DNA from: Kiritimatiellia bacterium
GTDB taxonomy: Bacteria > Verrucomicrobiota > Kiritimatiellia > RFP12 > UBA3636
Length of the DNA: 38,745 nt
Direction of reading: 5' to 3'
Assembly (NCBI GenBank): GCA_017424105.1
Contig: JAFPBK010000083.1
Span: forward strand, 1-38,745
Below, one piece after another: positions 18,607 through 38,745 of this stretch; within the stretch, counting starts at the first letter, position 1; the number at the start of each line of letters is the position of its first letter. Under the pieces are notes generated by a model, which saw only the letters and a list, made by a program, of their open reading frames with translations, searched no databases and was not told the origin of the DNA. A program made the position numbers and the translations under genes.

Positions 18607-18957
18607 CTAACCTTGCAACTCAAATGCTGTTGCATCACAGCCATCCATTGCTGCTGGTTTTTCCACATAGACGCGTACCCATCCCACTTTAGGCAGAGCT
18701 TTGATTTCTGTAAAGATATCATAAGCAAAGCTCTCAATTAGTTTATATTCTTTTGATGCAGCAAATTTATTTACTATTTCAAGAGCTAATTCATAATTAA
18801 AAGTGTCATTAAGATCATCACTTGTTAAAGCACGTTCTATACCTAATGGGCTTAGTTCAATATCTACTACAGCAGGGCGAGGAGCTATTCTCTCCTCAGG
18901 ATAGTGCCCTAGTATTAGGTTAACCTTTATCCTTTTTACAAAAATCTTTGCTTCCAT
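18607..18957 (-). CDS. folB: dihydroneopterin aldolase
   Basis: ILGHYPEER, SDDLNDTFNY, LIE, VEKPAA. Confidence 0.9.
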   Translation of the reverse strand: MEAKIFVKRIKVNLILGHYPEERIAPRPAVVDIELSPLGIERALTSDDLNDTFNYELALEIVNKFAASKEYKLIESFAYDIFTEIKALPKVGWVRVYVEKPAAMDGCDATAFELQG

Positions 18958-19042
18958 AAAATCTCACATATATAAATTCATTTTGATTTTTTATAAAATT
19001 ATACACTATGATGTAATCTTTTTCCATAAAAAACCATACCTT

Positions 19043-19500
19043 AGCCTAAATTCGTAGCCGAATTTAGATGAAGCAGCACTGCGGCATATGAAGCATTGCG
19101 AAGCACTATATGCGATGGAATTATTTAAAGTTTCAGCAAGGCGAGGACGCCATGCCGCCCAGTTATTCTGTAAGACGGGGACGTCTTACAGCCCAGTTAA
19201 CGTGTAGGACGGGGACGTCCTACACCCCAGTTAAGCACACACAAAAAAATATTTTACCTAATCTATTCGTTATTCACTATTCACTAATTCTGCGTACTTA
19301 CGCTCCCATACTCAATTATCTTGTGGGCCGCACACGCTAGCGATTGGTAGTTGGCGTTATCTTGGAGCGGCTAGGCGTCGCCCTAGCCTCCAACAACAAG
19401 CGCTGGCGTATCATCCGGAACCACCACGCAAGCCCCCACACAAGCTCAGCGCACCTCAGCGCCCTTTGCGCTCTCTGCGTCCCTTCCCTTCGCACGCTAG
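19043..19500 (+). repeat. dispersed modular multi-hairpin element, copy 1 (type-1 tail)
   Basis: Core 19127-19230 is near-identical to the copies at 25656, 34245 and 38469; leader and tail are shared with copy 4. Confidence 0.92.
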
Positions 19501-19557
19501 CCGTCTTACTTGAATTCTACTGCAATTCAAGGACTAACAGTGCTTGTGCTGCTTAAT

Positions 19558-20439
19558 TTAAATTCTAGGGATTGATGGTGCAGCACCTGCTTTGCTGACA
19601 CAAATTGCAGAAGCACGTGTAGCTAACTGCATTGCTGATTGCACTGTGGCTCCAGATGCAATCTGTGCAAGAAAATATCCTATGAATGTATCGCCTGCTG
19701 CTGTTGTATCAACAGCCACAACCTTCTGTGCAGGCTCAAAATGCTGAGTACCATCAACACCAGCATATACACTGCCACGAGAGCCAAGTGTTAATAAAAT
19801 ATTTGTTGTCGGATAGCTCTGCTTTAGCTTTGCTAATAGTGGCTCATAATCATCGCTGTCACTGGCACCAACTAATTCTGCTGCCTCAACCTCATTAACA
19901 ACCAAAACATCTATTGATTGCAAATCTAATTTACAAATTGATTTATCCATCGGTGCAGGATTAAAAACGACCTTTAACCCCTTCTCTGCTGCAAGAGCAA
20001 TTATCTCAGCGATTGCTGATGTTTCATTCTGCAAAAGCAAATAATCCCCTGGTTCAAAGCCCAAATCTGATATAGCGGCAGCCACATCGCTGGCAGTAAC
20101 ACAACGATTTGCACCACCCTCAATCAAGATGCAATTCTGCCCTTCTGTATTAACCTGAATAATTGCATGGCCTGTAGGTCCATCTACTTGCGTAAGATGA
20201 GAAATTCCAGCACTTTCATTTGCCAAAAAATCAACAAGCCATGTTCCATCTGCACCTACATGTCCGACATGATGTACCGTTGCACCTGCACGTGCTAATG
20301 CAATGCTCTGATTAAGTCCCTTGCCACCAGGATAACGAGCATAGCCAGTAGAAGATAATGTTTCACCTGGCTGCACAAAGTGTGGTACTTGATAAACATA
20401 ATCAATATTCAGAGAACCAACGTTAAGTATCTTTTTCAT
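19558..20439 (-). CDS. rbsK: ribokinase (PfkB family)
   Basis: GSLNID, PGGKGLNQ, NPAP, VNEVE, VDTTAAGDTF. Confidence 0.9.
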   Translation of the reverse strand: MKKILNVGSLNIDYVYQVPHFVQPGETLSSTGYARYPGGKGLNQSIALARAGATVHHVGHVGADGTWLVDFLANESAGISHLTQVDGPTGHAIIQVNTEGQNCILIEGGANRCVTASDVAAAISDLGFEPGDYLLLQNETSAIAEIIALAAEKGLKVVFNPAPMDKSICKLDLQSIDVLVVNEVEAAELVGASDSDDYEPLLAKLKQSYPTTNILLTLGSRGSVYAGVDGTQHFEPAQKVVAVDTTAAGDTFIGYFLAQIASGATVQSAMQLATRASAICVSKAGAAPSIPRI

Positions 20440-21697: not shown

Positions 21698-22879
21698 TTA
21701 AAAGCCAAATCCCTTTGTCATTTGCAACAATGGCAACAATACAGCAATTGCAATCAGGAATACAAAGCCGCCAATTGCGACGAGCATAATTGGTTCAAGT
21801 AACGCAAGTCTTACAGACATATATTTTTCCCACATACGGCGAGCCTTGCTTGCTGCAACCTCCAGCATCTGTGGAAGACAGCCACCTGTCTCACCGACAC
21901 GAGCCCAGCCAGTGAGCTCTGTACGTAGTACAGGCACAGCATCAATTGCATCGGACACAGCAACACCATTACGAACACGCTCTGTCTGCTCTAAAACCAG
22001 CTTTTTGAGCCAACGATTACCTGTACCTTCACCAGCAATAGGCAAAGCATTAACGATTGGCATACCTGCCTCAGAAAGCACAGAAAGAATTGAAGCAAAG
22101 CGCATACTTACAAGACCTGCCATTGCTGCTCCTCCTAAGTGAAGCAACACAAATCTATCAAATCGCTCTGCAAATTCTAAATTATTCTTAGCATAAGCTT
22201 TAGCAGAGAACCATGCCACAAGTGCACCAACAAATAGTGATGCAGAACCAATCACAAGAACCTTTGCCAGCACAATCACTACTTTGCTTAGCATTGGAAG
22301 TTCTGCTCCGGAATTTGAAAGCATATTAAGGGTGTGAGGAACAACAAAACCAAGCATCACTACACCGATAATAAAACCAAGTGCTAAAACAAAGCTTGGA
22401 TAAATCAAAGCTGAGCGAAGTTTATCTCGCACTGCCTCCATCGCCTCAATAAATTCAGCTGCCTTTGAACAAAGCTCAGGAAGCTTTCCAGCCTTTTCTG
22501 CAGCTGATAGTGCAGCCAATTCAAAACTGGAGACACTGCCACAATATTCACCTATGGCAGCAGATAAATCAACGCCCTCGCGAACTCGTTGTAGCACACC
22601 TGTAAGAAGCTTTGCTGCAGATGCACCTTCTGATTTAATTAAAAGTTCAAGAGCAGCATCTAGCTGTATACCTGCAGAAAGAAGAGCGCTCAGCTCGCGA
22701 TAAATTGCAGCACGTGCAGCTGGAGAAAGCTGACCTGTAAGCTTTGCAGTGCTCACTTGCTCAGCAACAATACCCTTCTCCATCAATAAACGAAGTGCAT
22801 GCTTTTCTGAGCTTGCATCAATTGACCCAGAGCAAGCTTCGCCTGTAGCAGTATACCCCTTATATTCGTACATTGGCAT
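21698..22879 (-). CDS. type II secretion F / PilC family inner-membrane platform protein
   Basis: MPMYEYKG start, two T2SSF repeats (LLSAGI..AL; ALIYP; VGETGG.L; LLEP). Confidence 0.9.
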   Translation of the reverse strand: MPMYEYKGYTATGEACSGSIDASSEKHALRLLMEKGIVAEQVSTAKLTGQLSPAARAAIYRELSALLSAGIQLDAALELLIKSEGASAAKLLTGVLQRVREGVDLSAAIGEYCGSVSSFELAALSAAEKAGKLPELCSKAAEFIEAMEAVRDKLRSALIYPSFVLALGFIIGVVMLGFVVPHTLNMLSNSGAELPMLSKVVIVLAKVLVIGSASLFVGALVAWFSAKAYAKNNLEFAERFDRFVLLHLGGAAMAGLVSMRFASILSVLSEAGMPIVNALPIAGEGTGNRWLKKLVLEQTERVRNGVAVSDAIDAVPVLRTELTGWARVGETGGCLPQMLEVAASKARRMWEKYMSVRLALLEPIMLVAIGGFVFLIAIAVLLPLLQMTKGFGF

Positions 22880-25369: not shown

Positions 25370-25461
25370 TGGCGGAGAGGGGGGGATTTGAACCCCCGGT
25401 ACAGAATTAACTGTACGACGAATTAGCAATCCGCTGCCTTCAGCCACTCAGCCACCTCTCC
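25370..25461 (-). tRNA. tRNA-Ser(GCT)
   Basis: Anticodon loop TTGCTAA, long variable arm, GGGGG-TTCAAAT-CCCCC T arm, CCA. Confidence 0.96.
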
Positions 25462-25528: not shown

Positions 25529-25604
25529 GCAAAAAAACACAAATTTCGCTTAATTTTCCTTAAAATGTTGCTTTCCATTTTAAATAAAGCTATTGAAGTT
25601 AGCG

Positions 25605-25984
25605 TGCCTAAGGCATATGAAGCATTGCAAAGCAATATATGTGGTGAGATTAAATAAAGTTTCAGCAAGGCGAGGACGCCATGCTGCCCAGTTATTCTGT
25701 AAGACGGAGACGTCTTACAGCCCAGTTAACGTGTAGGACGGGGACGTCCTACACCCCAGAACTATGCGCTACCTAATACAGGTTAATCCTGAAAAATCAT
25801 CTTGGTGCACAGCCAGGACGACGCCTGGCTGCTCCGAGATAATTGAATCACGAACACCACACATGCACAGCACCTAGCCATCACGCAAACCACCACACGC
25901 ACGCAACATCCGACAAAATCAAAACAAAATTATTGTCATTCCTGTCAAAAAATTCGCACTTTTAGCCATCACGCTTACGTACGC
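25605..25984 (+). repeat. dispersed modular element, copy 2 (type-2 tail)
   Basis: Core 25656-25759; tail shared with copy 3. Confidence 0.92.
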
Positions 25985-34186: not shown

Positions 34187-34548
34187 ATGAAGCAACGCGA
34201 ACGCTATGAAGCGATATAGCGCAATTTATGCGATGGAATTATTTAAAGTTTCAGCAAGGCGAGGACGCCATGCCGCCCAGTTATTCTGTAAGACGGGACG
34301 TCTTACAGCCCAGTTAACGTGTAGGACGGGGACGTCCTACACCCCAGAAAAACCGCGATAGCCAATACACGTTAATCCTGAGAAATCATCTTGGTGCACA
34401 GCCAGGGCGACGCCTGGCTGCTCCGAGATAATTGAATCATGCACACCACGCGCACACAGCACCTAGCCACCACACTCACGCAGCACCTAGAAATCCTGCC
34501 ATCCTGCGCAATCCCGTAATCCTGCGTCCCTTCCCTTCGCACTTTTAG
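34187..34548 (+). repeat. dispersed modular element, copy 3 (type-2 tail)
   Basis: Core 34245-34347; tail like copy 2; CTGCGTCCCTTCCCTTCGCAC shared with copy 1. Confidence 0.92.
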
Positions 34549-36572: not shown

Positions 36573-37319
36573 TTATTCTACAGGTACTGAAACAATAACC
36601 TGAGCTGCACGAAGCACCTTTCCATTAAGAGTATAGCCCTTACGAACCTCAAATAGAACATGCTCTGGAGGAACGCTATCTGTAGGCATCTTTGAAAGTG
36701 CTTCATGATATTCTACATCAAAAGGCTTACCAAGAGACTCAACTGGCTTTAATCCAAATTTATCAAGTCCGCGTAGCAGCTCATTTTGAATAAGCTTAAA
36801 GCCTTCAATATAAGGATTTGGCTCTGCTGGCTTTGCTTCTTCTCCTTCTGCAGGAGCTGGAGCAGCAACGGTCTTCTCAAGAGAAGCAAGAGCGCTATCA
36901 ATATGATCTAGAGCTGGTAGCATTGCTGAAAGAAGTTCTGCATTTGCACTTTTAATCATATCTGCTTTATCGCGAGCCATACGTTTACGATAATTATCAA
37001 AATCAGCCTGAAGGCGCATTAAGCGTTCACGATAAATATCTGCCTCTGACTGTGCAGGAGCTTCTTCTGCTGGCTCCACCTCTGGTTCTTCTGCAGCAGC
37101 AGCAGCTTCCTCTGTTGATTCAGTTGCAGCCTCTTCTGCAGGAGCTTCCTCTGCTGTTGTCTCTTCTACAGGTGTCTCTTCTGTAGGAGCAGCTGGAGTC
37201 TCCTCCTCAACTGCAGGCTCTGCAGCTACAGTATTTTCTATTGTTTGCTCTTCAACAACTACATTTTCAGTTGTTGTTGTGTCATCTGCAGATACATTTT
37301 TCAAATCATCGCTATTCAT
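36573..37319 (-). CDS. grpE: nucleotide exchange factor GrpE
   Basis: RLQADFDNYRKR, FDVEYHEA, GYTLNGKVLRAAQV; long acidic N-terminus. Confidence 0.95.
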   Translation of the reverse strand: MNSDDLKNVSADDTTTTENVVVEEQTIENTVAAEPAVEEETPAAPTEETPVEETTAEEAPAEEAATESTEEAAAAAEEPEVEPAEEAPAQSEADIYRERLMRLQADFDNYRKRMARDKADMIKSANAELLSAMLPALDHIDSALASLEKTVAAPAPAEGEEAKPAEPNPYIEGFKLIQNELLRGLDKFGLKPVESLGKPFDVEYHEALSKMPTDSVPPEHVLFEVRKGYTLNGKVLRAAQVIVSVPVE

Positions 37320-37486
37320 AATAAACAAGTTCCTTCTAAATCAAATGGGTGTATAAAAACAAATTTATCAAAATACAAAACACCCAAAATCAGTATTAAA
37401 AAACATTTAAATTAAAAAAATATAGTTAAAAATTTTATCATTTTTTTGCTCTTTTGTAAACCAGAAATCAAAATCCACAAGAGAGA

Positions 37487-38184: not shown

Positions 38185-38345
38185 ATGCAAATGCTTCCGT
38201 CATAGCGCTTAATAAATTTGTCCCCAAGGTCCCCTAAGCGCTAAACTGACTGTACAATCGTCAAATCGTCTTTATGAAATAAGAGTTTTGCGCAATGCGT
38301 GCGTGCAAAGCACGCTAGGCCCGTTTTGAGTACAAGGCGGGATAA

Positions 38346-38745
38346 AGCCTAAATTCGTGTCCGAATTTAGATGAAGCAGCACTGCGTGCTATGAAGCGGT
38401 GCAAGCACCATGAAGCATGCCTTCGGCATATGAAGCATTGCGAAACAATATATGCGGTGGAATTATTTAAAGTTTCAGCAAGGCGAGGACGCCATGCCGC
38501 CCAGTTATTCTGTAAGACGGGGACGTCTTACAACCCAGTTACCGTGTAGGACGGGGACGTCCTACACCCCAGTTAAGCACACACTTTAAATATTTTAACC
38601 TTATCTATTCACTAATTCTGCGTACGCTCCCATACTCAATGATCTTGTGGGCCGTACACGCTAGCGATTGGCAGTTGGCGTTATCTCGGAGCGGCTAGGC
38701 GTCGCCCTAGCCTCCAACAACAAGCGCTGGCGTATCACCCAGAAC
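38346..38745 (+). repeat. dispersed modular element, copy 4 (type-1 tail; truncated by the window end)
   Basis: Fullest ATGAAGC array (38371-38449), core 38469-38572, tail like copy 1. Confidence 0.92.

Follow-up and report, generated by a model that had tools for sequence, protein, structure and literature searches.

Arrays of short hairpins joined by a constant ATGAAGC linker, of Gut-1-type layout, in the genome of a Kiritimatiellia bacterium

Close to the end of a contig of a Kiritimatiellia bacterium (JAFPBK010000083.1, 38,745 nt, analysed in full and hereafter the window), the 7-mer ATGAAGC occurs at 38371, 38391, 38410, and 38430 on the forward strand (start spacings of 20, 19, and 20 bases respectively), and each copy is followed by a different short palindrome. 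What kind of element is built in this way, and in which form would it be recognized? The original prediction, which likened it to a CRISPR array with reversed logic, gave 7-mer positions, a 19-20 period, and spacer sequences that are all borne out by the sequence. ATGAAGC is over-represented in the window (21 copies vs. 10.7 expected, a number reached in 0 of 100 shuffles). The ~5-bp stem predicted for every spacer is present in three of them, as Watson-Crick stems AGCAC/GTGCT, GGTGC/GCACC, and ATGCC/GGCAT; the fourth hairpin (ATTGCGAAACAAT) has only 4 bp in the window copy, its 3' arm being ACAAT instead of the consensus GCAAT. The array and its parts, with the other copies in the window, are as follows:

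38349..38370, forward strand: leader hairpin (CTAAATTCG, a 4-nt loop, CGAATTTAG), 5' of the array; it precedes most of the 93 arrays in the genome
38371..38449, forward strand: four ATGAAGC linkers, each followed by a hairpin (from sequence reading and genome comparison)
38378-38390, 38398-38409, 38417-38429, and 38437-38449, forward strand: hairpins 1, 2, 3, and 4 of the window array respectively
38450..38460, forward strand: constant tail ATATGCGGTGG, whose middle three bases differ among copies
38461..38499, forward strand: downstream module of type 'a' (AATTATTTAAAGTTTCAGCAAGGCGAGGACGCC...), with a GGCG-AGGA-CGCC hairpin
38500..38572, forward strand: second linker-plus-hairpin module, with CCCAGTTA-type linkers (family D2, 7 copies in the window)
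38573..38745, forward strand: more mosaic repeat modules up to the contig end (family D4; inverted pairs I3-I5)
19046..19268, forward strand: second copy, with leader hairpin, two units (from 19068), and type-'a' and CCCAG modules (families D1 and D8)
25597..25797, forward strand: third copy, with one full unit and a remnant, followed by the same downstream modules
34187..34347, forward strand: fourth copy, with two degenerate units, followed by the same downstream modules

As had been claimed, the other copies in the window thus carry one or two units: two at 19068 and at 34187, and one plus the remnant TGCCTAAGGCA at 25605-25640. The third copy lies ~135 nt from a tRNA-Ser gene (25370-25461, reverse strand). 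The array can be followed by any of at least four modules, among them type 'a', whose core occurs in the genome 33 times in a 21-nt form and 22 times in a 24-nt form; since the downstream modules vary, the right end of the element is undefined. The CCCAGTTA-type module contains two 8-10-bp hairpins with GGGA loops (at 38512-38531 and 38544-38567), of which the genome has 69 and 73 respectively. The window is the whole contig, and its end falls within a repeat, 38623-38745 being a repeat of 19299-19421. We rejected a coding reading of the array, because its period (19-20) is not divisible by three; only short ORFs cross it.

The window array belongs to a large repeat family. We found 93 arrays in the 1.78-Mb genome (~1 per 19 kb), and 67 of them have exactly four units; likewise in 67 of the 93, the same four hairpins stand in the same order. 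The leader hairpin motif has 67 sites. Together, the leader hairpin, the four ATGAAGC-plus-hairpin units, and the tail form a fixed module of ~112 nt, which is itself part of mosaic intergenic repeats that occur in many module combinations and in both orientations. The resemblance to CRISPR, i.e., a regular alternation of constant and "variable" segments with a period of tens of bases, is therefore superficial: the constant part of the array is only 7 nt long and unstructured, there are 2 to 7 units at each of 93 loci, and the "spacers" are four position-specific hairpins of a repeated module that recur rather than being unique. On this ground both a CRISPR array and the "reversed CRISPR" with differing spacers were discarded.

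At the DNA level, similarity to the arrays does not extend beyond the genus (all 4 of its genomes vs. 0 of 36 other relatives); one of the four, the 88% complete G003, has 27 triple matches. Among 301 genomes sampled from the class, arrays turned up nowhere outside this genus except at a single locus of the genome G007; a sample of the order added a single match (G141), a coding tandem repeat and not a hairpin array. By crude ORF calls, five of the 93 arrays overlap ORFs, and the orientation of neighboring genes follows no rule: the upstream gene is on the same strand as the array in 51 cases and on the opposite strand in 33, and the downstream gene in 31 and 32 cases respectively, i.e., without bias. 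Nor are the dispersed arrays near tRNA or tmRNA genes beyond chance (2 of 93 within 500 nt vs. 1.9% of random positions). The repeats are located where synteny with relatives breaks. When two window intervals were compared by BLAST with G001-G004, the marks of a MITE, a non-autonomous DNA transposon (empty sites in relatives, a target-site duplication, terminal inverted repeats), were not found for the dispersed copies, and the mobility of these copies is therefore something we only infer. The flanks of the window copies lie on different contigs or 14 kb apart in G001-G004 and are thus not adjacent, so that no empty site or insertion boundary could be aligned. In G003, the DNA beyond the flank shared with the fourth copy carries no such element. 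The repeats also break metagenome assemblies; this genome consists of 141 contigs, and the end of the window contig falls within a repeat.

High-copy intergenic mosaics of small hairpin modules are familiar from the REP/BIME repeats with their REP-associated tyrosine transposase (RAYT), the BOX elements of Streptococcus pneumoniae, and the NIMEs of Neisseria, in all of which the number of middle modules varies and loop variation is tolerated, but stem variation is not. The comparison is with the general descriptions of these elements. The units of the array are direct repeats joined by a constant 7-mer, whereas REP/BIME-type repeats consist of alternating inverted palindromic units, and, again unlike that type, its low-copy parents are fixed behind tRNA/tmRNA genes beside genes of the protein family PF05635 (discussed below). 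It is highly improbable, in our estimate, that the array is a repeat of the REP/BIME type, with hairpins and constant flank recognized and moved as single-stranded DNA by a Y1 HUH RAYT, even though a conserved motif flanks the hairpins of this intergenic high-copy repeat, its arrays are over-represented between convergent genes (19 of the 54 that have a gene on both sides vs. 76 of 1203 gene junctions), and the genome has one Y1_Tnp gene (34.6-37.1 bits). No repeats flank that gene (3055-4185 of contig C36), the module closest to it on the contig being at 18485, and Y1_Tnp homologs are present in 24 of 31 family genomes, whereas arrays occur only in genus g1 and at the one G007 locus. As the gene is neither flanked by nor co-distributed with the repeats, the RAYT link was rejected.

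If the palindromes matter, the spacers should be more palindromic than shuffled controls, a check that had been set beforehand. Genome-wide, 271 of 339 array spacers are perfect 5-bp hairpins, compared to 0.57 of 339 for shuffled spacers; outside the arrays, a perfect hairpin follows ATGAAGC in 6 of 540 copies. Pairwise diversity is lowest in the linkers (~0.00-0.14), is 0.03-0.17 in the stems of hairpins 2-4, and mostly reaches 0.4-0.7 in the loops. Hairpin 1 covaries: its arms are perfectly paired in 58 of 67 arrays, while partner-shuffled arms gave a mean of 22.2 and a maximum of 35, and seven perfectly paired arm types exist in the genome. These compensatory changes agree with the earlier idea of a constant linker with a hairpin of changeable sequence and kept pairing. 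In the dispersed arrays, mismatches (A-C 37, G-T 25) are without strand bias. Among 13 low-copy relatives described below, 98.5% of cells pair, 13 of 21 pairs show double changes, and the covariation score was reached by 0 of 500 shuffles; the pairing is nearly all Watson-Crick, with one G-U in 273 cells. The same linker is found with quite different hairpins in other subfamilies, in another genus, and in another phylum, and hairpin order is circularly permuted among relatives. A closing helix around the array has a mean of 8.6 contiguous pairs with its own partner vs. 6.6 with the partners of others in the 13 low-copy relatives, and is weakly supported because three sequences (L116 and both G498 copies) do not have it. 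Single-sequence folding of the window copy merged hairpins 1 and 2 into another stem and did not give four separate hairpins, with folding z-scores of -4.0 for a 235-nt RNA and -2.4 for a 125-nt DNA.

Selection thus keeps the 7-nt linker and the pairing, not the loops. This pattern bears on the possibility that the arrays have no sequence-specific function and are passive mosaic repeats spread by recombination or slippage, with palindromes kept by template-switch correction of quasi-palindromes. The range of 2 to 7 units, the duplicated units in some arrays (on contigs C133 and C81), the circular permutation, the many module combinations in both orientations, and the position at synteny breaks would all be expected of such repeats. 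Nevertheless, we regard this as quite unlikely: the linkers, which are beyond the reach of fold-back correction, are the most conserved part while nearby loops are near saturation, two phyla have kept this linker although their hairpins are unrelated, and the low-copy relatives have a fixed context of tRNA/tmRNA genes and one PF05635 clade.

Of the catalogued relatives, the Gut-1 motif (Rfam RF01706; Weinberg et al., 2010, Genome Biol 11:R31, PMC2864571) is the closest. That work rates Gut-1 as likely RNA, neither cis-regulatory nor a switch, and the supplementary seed alignment has the same layout as the window array. In both, a leading hairpin is followed by at least three short hairpins with tri- or tetraloops, a constant 7-nt linker contains a UGAA core, and the source is gut bacteria or gut metagenomes; our genome has 67 canonical arrays of this architecture. 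The alignment of the Gut-1 covariance model to 38369-38441 spans the entire model (1-77), with linkers on linkers and stems on stems. The score of 20.2 bits is below the Rfam gathering score of 50, and 58 arrays in the genome match at 17.2-28.5 bits, none above the cut-off. At the gathering score, Rfam gives four tRNAs only in the whole window, and a relaxed scan of the region of the second copy (18950-19560) gave no matches. The linker also differs, being AUGAAGC rather than GUGAAAU, with only the core UGAA in common. By its grammar, the window array is therefore of Gut-1 type, yet it scores below membership.

Continuity with true members was found in a relative and not within the window. A Ruminococcus record (L114) contains a true Gut-1 match (64.3 bits, 344-417 on the reverse strand) that adjoins an ATGAAGC array starting at 251 on the forward strand, and two further ATGAAGC arrays (L150 and L135) score 33.7 and 35.8 bits respectively; in another Verrucomicrobiota family, the model reaches 30-39 bits. 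Whereas the Gut-1 seed comes from the human gut, the window array is hosted by a Verrucomicrobiota (Kiritimatiellae-type) genome, and its module, unlike Gut-1, has multiplied to 93 arrays that form part of mosaic repeats. Both a second phylum and a high-copy variant are new for Gut-1-type arrays. In the literature searched, Gut-1 is named only by its original description and by a 2026 structure-prediction benchmark.

Besides the dispersed arrays, we found low-copy "complete" relatives in this genus, in other Verrucomicrobiota, and in gut Clostridia. A pattern scan of the whole collection gave at least 119 loci; 18 among the matches listed have two perfect hairpins and the remaining ones are coding or plain tandem repeats, and the taxon list is incomplete, so that these are minimum figures. 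Many relatives have tRNA or tmRNA genes inside their 250-nt flanks. In this genus and in another Verrucomicrobiota family, the complete elements lie directly after tRNA/tmRNA genes and beside a gene that is a clear PF05635 member (93 bits) encoding an Avd/S23p-like four-helix bundle. The only PF05635 genes of our genome (G000) flank the low-copy array on contig C26, where a 116-aa PF05635 protein is encoded at 22017-22367 and the array-proximal gene is broken; the arrangement is the same in G001, G002, and G004, and no PF05635 gene was found in the 88% complete G003. This combined context is present at the C26 locus, in G001, G002, and G004, and at four loci of family f71. The window copy does not have it, no PF05635 gene was found in the window, and one of the 93 arrays in the genome adjoins such a gene. 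Within 450 nt of 11 of the 21 PF05635 genes examined there are at least two units, compared to 2.9% of random windows, where seven genus rows represent one orthologous locus and are therefore not independent. PF05635 genes adjoining such arrays form one clade, and those beside heptamer repeats fall outside it.

PF05635 includes the 23S rRNA intervening-sequence protein and Avd, the accessory protein of diversity-generating retroelements. Its members are also encoded in insertions within 23S rRNA, another stable-RNA gene; the intervening-sequence PF05635 thus lies inside rRNA, whereas the complete elements lie behind tRNA/tmRNA genes. The resemblance of PF05635 to Avd is noted in a published account (PMC10053308). 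On casual inspection, neither a reverse transcriptase nor a template/variable repeat pair was noticed around the loci of the complete elements. In the genus, the complete element resides in a cassette of 1.1-1.26 kb that is 96.7-97.3% identical between species, compared to 71-85% for the flanking genes, and that starts with the last bases of the tmRNA gene in three species. Hairpins 1 and 3 are common to the cassette array and the dispersed module.

In the cassette, the ATGAAGC half is followed after a few bases by a TATAAT-like hexamer, which lies ~50 nt 5' of the array-proximal PF05635 gene, and in other genomes plain tandem heptamers without hairpins flank PF05635 genes. Along with a 19-20-bp period of about two helical turns, these features could suggest a double-stranded operator array, in which the 7-mers are regulator sites for an adjacent promoter, like iterons or operators, and the palindromes are incidental. 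We find this very unlikely, as a duplex site needs no pairing while the spacer pairing survives compensatory change and even complete sequence replacement, and as the dispersed arrays show no orientation bias toward downstream genes.

It is harder to choose between the two kinds of folded strand. If RNA only is involved, the array would be a structured domain of a small RNA or of mRNA untranslated parts, whose AUGAAGC linkers would pair with GCUUCAU boxes or soak up an RNA-binding protein. Such a role fits the cataloguing of Gut-1 as likely RNA by Weinberg et al. (2010; PMC2864571), a terminator-like hairpin and U-run after the array on the linker strand at all three low-copy loci scanned (L083, L045, and L040), three upstream GCTTCAT boxes at low-copy loci that pair with the ATGAAGC boxes in minimum-free-energy folds, and a closing helix that varies among three complementary forms. 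In addition, contigs of one RNA library cover 38350-38433, although DNA carry-over is possible and the contigs are strandless. The stretch is present in public metagenome runs from cattle, pig, manure, and other gut sources, with small shares in the metatranscriptome X20 and in an RNA-Seq-labelled library (X19, probably DNA); as these are contigs only, strand, level, and ends are unreadable.

Several features of the array suggest DNA over RNA, unlike the filing of Gut-1. The scarcity of G-U pairs in the low-copy relatives, and the failure of G-T to exceed A-C on either strand, speak against RNA. The low-copy relatives also have a single loop polarity: on the linker strand, 48 of their 64 triloops read TNC, i.e., C-GNA-G on the other, and the opposite polarity was seen in 0. 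The predicted GNA triloops, known as DNA mini-hairpins of the C-GNA-G kind, therefore hold for the low-copy relatives; in the dispersed copies, polarity is relaxed (TNC 76, GNA 47, ANA 67, and TNT 19 of 231). One loop polarity together with the near-absence of G-U fits DNA hairpins. Furthermore, at the full loci both the tRNA and the PF05635 gene run antisense to the linker strand of the tRNA-proximal half, with a promoter-like site between the element and the PF05635 gene; a promoter scan of the low-copy loci gave no site placed to drive the linker strand, and the window scan gave neither a promoter-like nor a terminator-like site at the window array. Dispersed arrays have no fixed orientation to neighboring genes, and the partner boxes of the Ruminococcus locus do not complement ATGAAGC but represent a second UGAA-type box on the opposite strand. 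An RNA-only role is, in our view, unlikely, though a serious contender.

We instead tentatively favor, at a little under even confidence, that the window array is a dispersed, non-autonomous derivative of a Gut-1-type hairpin-and-linker cassette and functions in the form of a folded single strand. With every 12-13-nt spacer snapping into a mini-hairpin, the 7-nt linkers would stand out at regular intervals like the teeth of a comb, and this comb may be read by a multimeric partner, for which the neighboring PF05635 protein is the best candidate. The folded strand is somewhat likelier to be DNA than RNA. The dispersed copies, including the window array, would be derivatives of the promoter-proximal half of the cassette's element and may spread or persist via the same recognition. 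The recognition of single-stranded DNA put forward in the original prediction is a live reading, though unproven, because no ssDNA-recognizing enzyme could be tied to the arrays and the closest catalogued relative is filed as RNA. Similarly, PF05635 is named as a partner through guilt by association. With a broken array-proximal gene in our genome, no PF05635 gene found in G003 despite its 27 triple matches, and a single adjacent array out of 93, the dispersed copies may not need the protein. The highest array copy numbers are those of G000 and G003, the two genomes that lack an intact PF05635 gene next to the array, a hint that the protein may keep spread in check.

Gut-1 has been an Rfam orphan since 2010, and the same grammar is now found outside the Firmicutes. 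In its most far-reaching form, which is speculative and rather doubtful, our proposal is that Gut-1-type arrays are the nucleic-acid partner of an Avd-like PF05635 clade in a new small mobile cassette at tRNA/tmRNA 3' ends, that they are read as folded ssDNA of C-GNA-G mini-hairpins, and that a half-element has escaped in this genus and multiplied to about a hundred copies. The fixed context of the complete elements already makes one directly testable pair of two orphans, the RNA motif and a widespread family of small proteins, and the question is raised of whether an "RNA" of Rfam is in fact a DNA structure.

The four ATGAAGC linkers lie on the + strand of the window at 38371, 38391, 38410 and 38430, and re-reading of the sequence confirmed these positions and the four predicted spacers, as well as the one or two units predicted for each of the remaining window copies (at about 19046, 25597 and 34187). 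Three spacers of the array (38371..38449) have a 5-bp stem, and the fourth one of only 4 bp. The window contains 21 ATGAAGC against 10.7 expected, a number that 0 of 100 shuffles got to. All four copies are intergenic with the linker on the + strand, and the long ORFs of the window are nearly all on the - strand, opposite to these linkers. The array is flanked by two conserved parts:

38349-38370: leader hairpin of 9 bp, 5' of the array
38450-38460: constant tail ATATGCGGTGG, 3' of the array

The source genome (G000) is a draft of 1.78 Mb in 141 contigs, with 40% G+C and 78.6% completeness, and one of its contigs (C50, 38,745 bases) makes up the entire window. The contig end (38745) falls within a repeat element, and in DNA runs the summed contig depth over 38300-38745 exceeds that of the unique flank by a factor of tens to hundreds, which fits an assembly that breaks at these repeats. 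The stretch is present in public runs from cattle, pig, manure, and other gut metagenomes. At the contig start (348-476), a 43-nt unit occurs three times in tandem with 65-100% identity to the first copy (family D6). On the - strand at 36573-37328, a GrpE-like ORF with a long acidic Ala/Glu/Pro-rich N-terminal extension and internal DNA repeats (family D7) has a DnaJ-like ORF directly downstream, without an intervening dnaK.

Defining an array as two or more linkers at a spacing of 17-23 bases, we found 93 arrays in the whole source genome (10 with two units, 14 with three, 67 with four, one with five, and one with seven). The original prediction saw a reversed CRISPR with differing spacers, which proved wrong: scattered base changes aside, all 67 four-unit arrays share one set of four hairpins in one order:

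Hairpin 1: consensus AGCRC..GYGCT
Hairpin 2: consensus GGTGC..GCACC
Hairpin 3: consensus ATGCC..GGCAT
Hairpin 4: consensus ATTGC..GCAAT

The predicted excess of palindromic spacers over shuffled controls was found genome-wide, as 271 of 339 array spacers form a perfect 5-bp hairpin versus 0.57 after shuffling; a perfect hairpin follows only 6 of 540 non-array linkers. Across the 67 canonical arrays, pairwise diversity is 0.00-0.14 in the linker columns (at most 0.06 in 27 of 28), 0.03-0.17 in the stems of hairpins 2-4, 0.24-0.44 at three stem positions of hairpin 1, and mostly 0.4-0.7 in the loops. Hairpin 1 occurs with seven different arm pairs that keep the pairing, perfect in 58 of 67 copies; random dealing of its 3' arms gives a mean of 22.2 (maximum, 35). 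Near-invariant linkers and stems together with near-random loops in about 90 copies argue that a folded single strand, which would display the linkers, is under constraint. Only 5 of the 93 arrays overlap crude ORF calls, and the arrays follow no rule of orientation relative to the genes beside them.

Besides these dispersed, high-copy arrays, a longer low-copy element (referred to as “complete”) is present in the source genome (contigs C26 and C38), in its genus, in another Verrucomicrobiota family (f71), and in named Lentisphaeria and Victivallaceae records. Its parts, in order along the linker strand unless stated, are:

Part 1: three GCTTCAT boxes (the linker complement) with short stem-loops in between
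Part 2: short segment able to base-pair with the distal array end
Part 3: three to five ATGAAGC-plus-hairpin units
Part 4: last unit, ATGAAGC-GAAGCC-loop-GGCTTC-AT, then a T-run
Part 5: long hairpin with an A/T-rich stem
Part 6: tRNA or tmRNA gene on the opposite strand, reached at its 3' end

A tRNA or tmRNA gene is beside the element at L040, L045, L046, and on C38, and in 12 of 20 named loci (L067, L138, L094, L083, L116, L154, L075, L161, L135, L102, L127, and L089). In an alignment of 13 complete elements, 98.5% of cells in the three hairpins and last stem are paired, changes on both sides occur in 13 of 21 pairs, and the covariation score is 0.586 versus 0.207 for shuffled alignments, with 0 of 500 shuffles as high. 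Part of this signal arises because whole hairpins swap places, their order being circularly permuted between genomes. The closing segment has three mutually complementary forms and is absent in 3 of the 13 sequences. In Clostridia, hairpin-plus-GCTTCAT units follow the ATGAAGC units, so that the half-arrays are oriented toward each other; those of Verrucomicrobiota point away from each other. Most likely, one half of such a Gut-1-type element gave rise to the window array as a dispersed, non-autonomous copy.

Gut-1 (RF01706) is an orphan Rfam motif, whose model the window array matched from end to end in a relaxed Rfam scan, stems on stems and linkers on linkers, with 20.2 bits (gathering score, 50). 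The linker is GUGAAAU in Gut-1, whereas it is AUGAAGC here. The model matched 58 arrays in the source genome (17.2-28.5 bits) and six f71 genomes in a 151-genome phylum sample (29.8-39 bits), and no match in either reached the cut-off. A true Gut-1 match in a Ruminococcus record (64.3 bits) directly adjoins an ATGAAGC array on the opposite strand, and two other Clostridia have ATGAAGC arrays with scores of 33.7 and 35.8 bits. Together, these matches indicate that the window array is a sub-threshold relative of Gut-1, outside its membership by Rfam's rule. In its original description, Gut-1 is a probable RNA, classed as neither cis-regulatory nor a switch and known from 43 human-gut sequences (Weinberg et al., 2010, PMC2864571). 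In the literature searched, Gut-1 or RF01706 is named only there and in a 2026 structure-predictor benchmark.

The folded strand could be DNA or RNA. TNC triloops closed by C-G prevail on the linker strand of the low-copy elements (37 of 47 triloops for Verrucomicrobiota, 11 of 17 for Clostridia) and GNA triloops do not occur there, so that the other strand carries C-GNA-G triloops, a class that reportedly (Hirao and Yoshizawa) forms unusually stable DNA mini-hairpins. This polarity counts for DNA, as do the scarcity of G-U pairs (1 of 273 cells in low-copy elements) and the stem mismatches of dispersed copies (A-C 37, G-T 25), which have no strand bias. Counting for RNA are the Rfam classification of Gut-1, a terminator-like stem and U-run 3' of the array on the linker strand in all three loci scanned, and, weakly, the coverage of the array by contigs of one RNA library. 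The window copy lacks promoter-like and terminator-like sites, and when folded alone did not give four separate hairpins. Loop polarity is relaxed in the dispersed copies (TNC 76, GNA 47, ANA 67, and TNT 19 of 231). Recognition of the arrays as single strands is plausible.

By DNA similarity, the element is confined to the genus: all 4 of the other genus genomes have it, and none of 36 genomes from other genera of the family and order does. In 151 genomes of the order, a pattern of three linkers with 11-14-base gaps, for which the reversed control pattern gave 0 in all 151, matched as follows:

G000, source genome: 124
G003, same genus: 27
G004, same genus: 12
G002, same genus: 7
G001, same genus: 4
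G007, another genus: 1
G141: 1, a coding tandem repeat

In a 301-genome class sample, only G000 (216), G004 (27), and G007 (6, all on one contig) had frequent matches to the two-linker pattern; other genomes had 0-3, with no hairpin among the matches listed. The G007 locus has an unchanged linker and quite different hairpins. Further, a three-linker scan of species representatives found at least 119 loci, at least 18 with two perfect hairpins; among the matches listed, the latter are in Lentisphaeria, Lentisphaerae, Lentisphaerales, Victivallaceae, and Kiritimatiellia, and also in Clostridia (Eubacteriales, Ruminococcaceae).

The dispersed elements, often in tandem in the source genome, can have at least four alternative modules 3' of the tail. 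Further repeat parts are:

38500-38572, 19158-19230, 25687-25759, 34275-34347: second linker-plus-hairpin module with CCCAGTTA-type linkers, 3' of the arrays
34401-34431 versus 19357-19387 and 38681-38711; also 25812-25842: 31-nt module, in both orientations relative to the arrays (inverted pairs I3-I5)
C22:28890-29110 and C32:24790-24960 of G000 (L052, L053): third array subfamily with the same linker and hairpins AGCACATGCGTGCT and GCTCATAAATGAGC

The second module, reached via one downstream module present in the window, has 8-10-bp stems and GGGA loops, and its hairpins GTAAGACG/CGTCTTAC and GTAGGACG/CGTCCTAC number 69 and 73 in the source genome. The two orientations of the 31-nt module indicate mosaic elements assembled from flippable modules. 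The third subfamily comes after CAAACTN heptamer runs and is multi-copy in G002 and G004.

A recurrent neighbor of the low-copy arrays is a PF05635 gene, of a four-helix-bundle family that resembles the Avd protein of diversity-generating retroelements (PMC10053308). Matches in the source genome are on C26 only, either side of the array, one gene intact (116 aa, 93 bits, pI 8.6) and one broken; in G001, G002, and G004 this array lies between two genes that are both intact, and no PF05635 match was found in G003 (genome 88% complete). The PF05635-containing loci are:

C26:21278-22534 of G000 (L051), and L174, L175, L176: cassette of two PF05635 genes with the hairpin array between, 1.1-1.26 kb
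L173, L177, L181, L184 (G007, four genes), L185 (G498), L182, L183; also noted, L015: heptamer-flanked PF05635 genes

The source cassette is 96.7-97.3% identical to those of G001, G002, and G004 (four species in all), and the housekeeping genes on either side of the window repeats show 71-85% identity with these three genomes. In these three the cassette starts within the last tmRNA gene bases, in the same direction; that of the source genome is located elsewhere, yet still ends in TGGTGG. Four f71 loci have, all on one strand, a tRNA (His, Val, Pro or Ser), a long hairpin, GCTTCAT units with GNA loops, the ATGAAGC part, promoter-like TTGTAA-17-TATATT, and a PF05635 gene. At least two linker-plus-hairpin units are within 450 nt of 11 of 21 PF05635 genes (ten genomes) versus 2.9% of random 900-nt source-genome windows, seven of the 11 being one orthologous locus in four related genomes, with about five independent cases. 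The heptamer-type genes have plain tandem repeats at their flanks, each cassette with its own heptamer; these repeats are inverted on the two sides of the gene in G007 and L185, and L182 and L183 are located directly after tRNA-Ser.

A tree of all 21 proteins places the 14 array-adjacent rows (ATGAAGC linker in 11, a linker variant in two, none in one) in a single clade with support 92/95. There, f71 genes and the array-proximal gene of the genus group together (98/100), and all seven heptamer-type rows are outside the clade. As related rows share labels, this link is suggestive only. The recurrent company of one clade makes the PF05635 protein the best candidate reader of the arrays. Three-linker counts are highest without an intact array-proximal gene (124 in G000, broken; 27 in G003, none found) and are 12, 7, and 4 with one (G004, G002, G001), only a hint from five related genomes. 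The state of this gene in G000 and G003 counts against simple dependence on PF05635, as do the single array of 93 that adjoins PF05635 and the 2 of 93 dispersed arrays within 500 nt of a tRNA (1.9% at random).

Hairpins 1 and 3 are common to the C26 cassette array and the window array. No empty site could be aligned for the dispersed copies. We considered spread by a REP-associated Y1 transposase (RAYT), which is unlikely. The source genome encodes one Y1_Tnp protein, with homologs in 24 of 31 family genomes:

C36:3055-4185 (L001:880-2013), - strand: 377-aa protein; residues 82-171 form an IS200-like Y1_Tnp domain, and the protein also has PHPEKMDS-like repeats in a run and a C-terminal part that is conserved

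To a known orphan family, these arrays add a new linker variant that has a high copy number and occurs in a second phylum.
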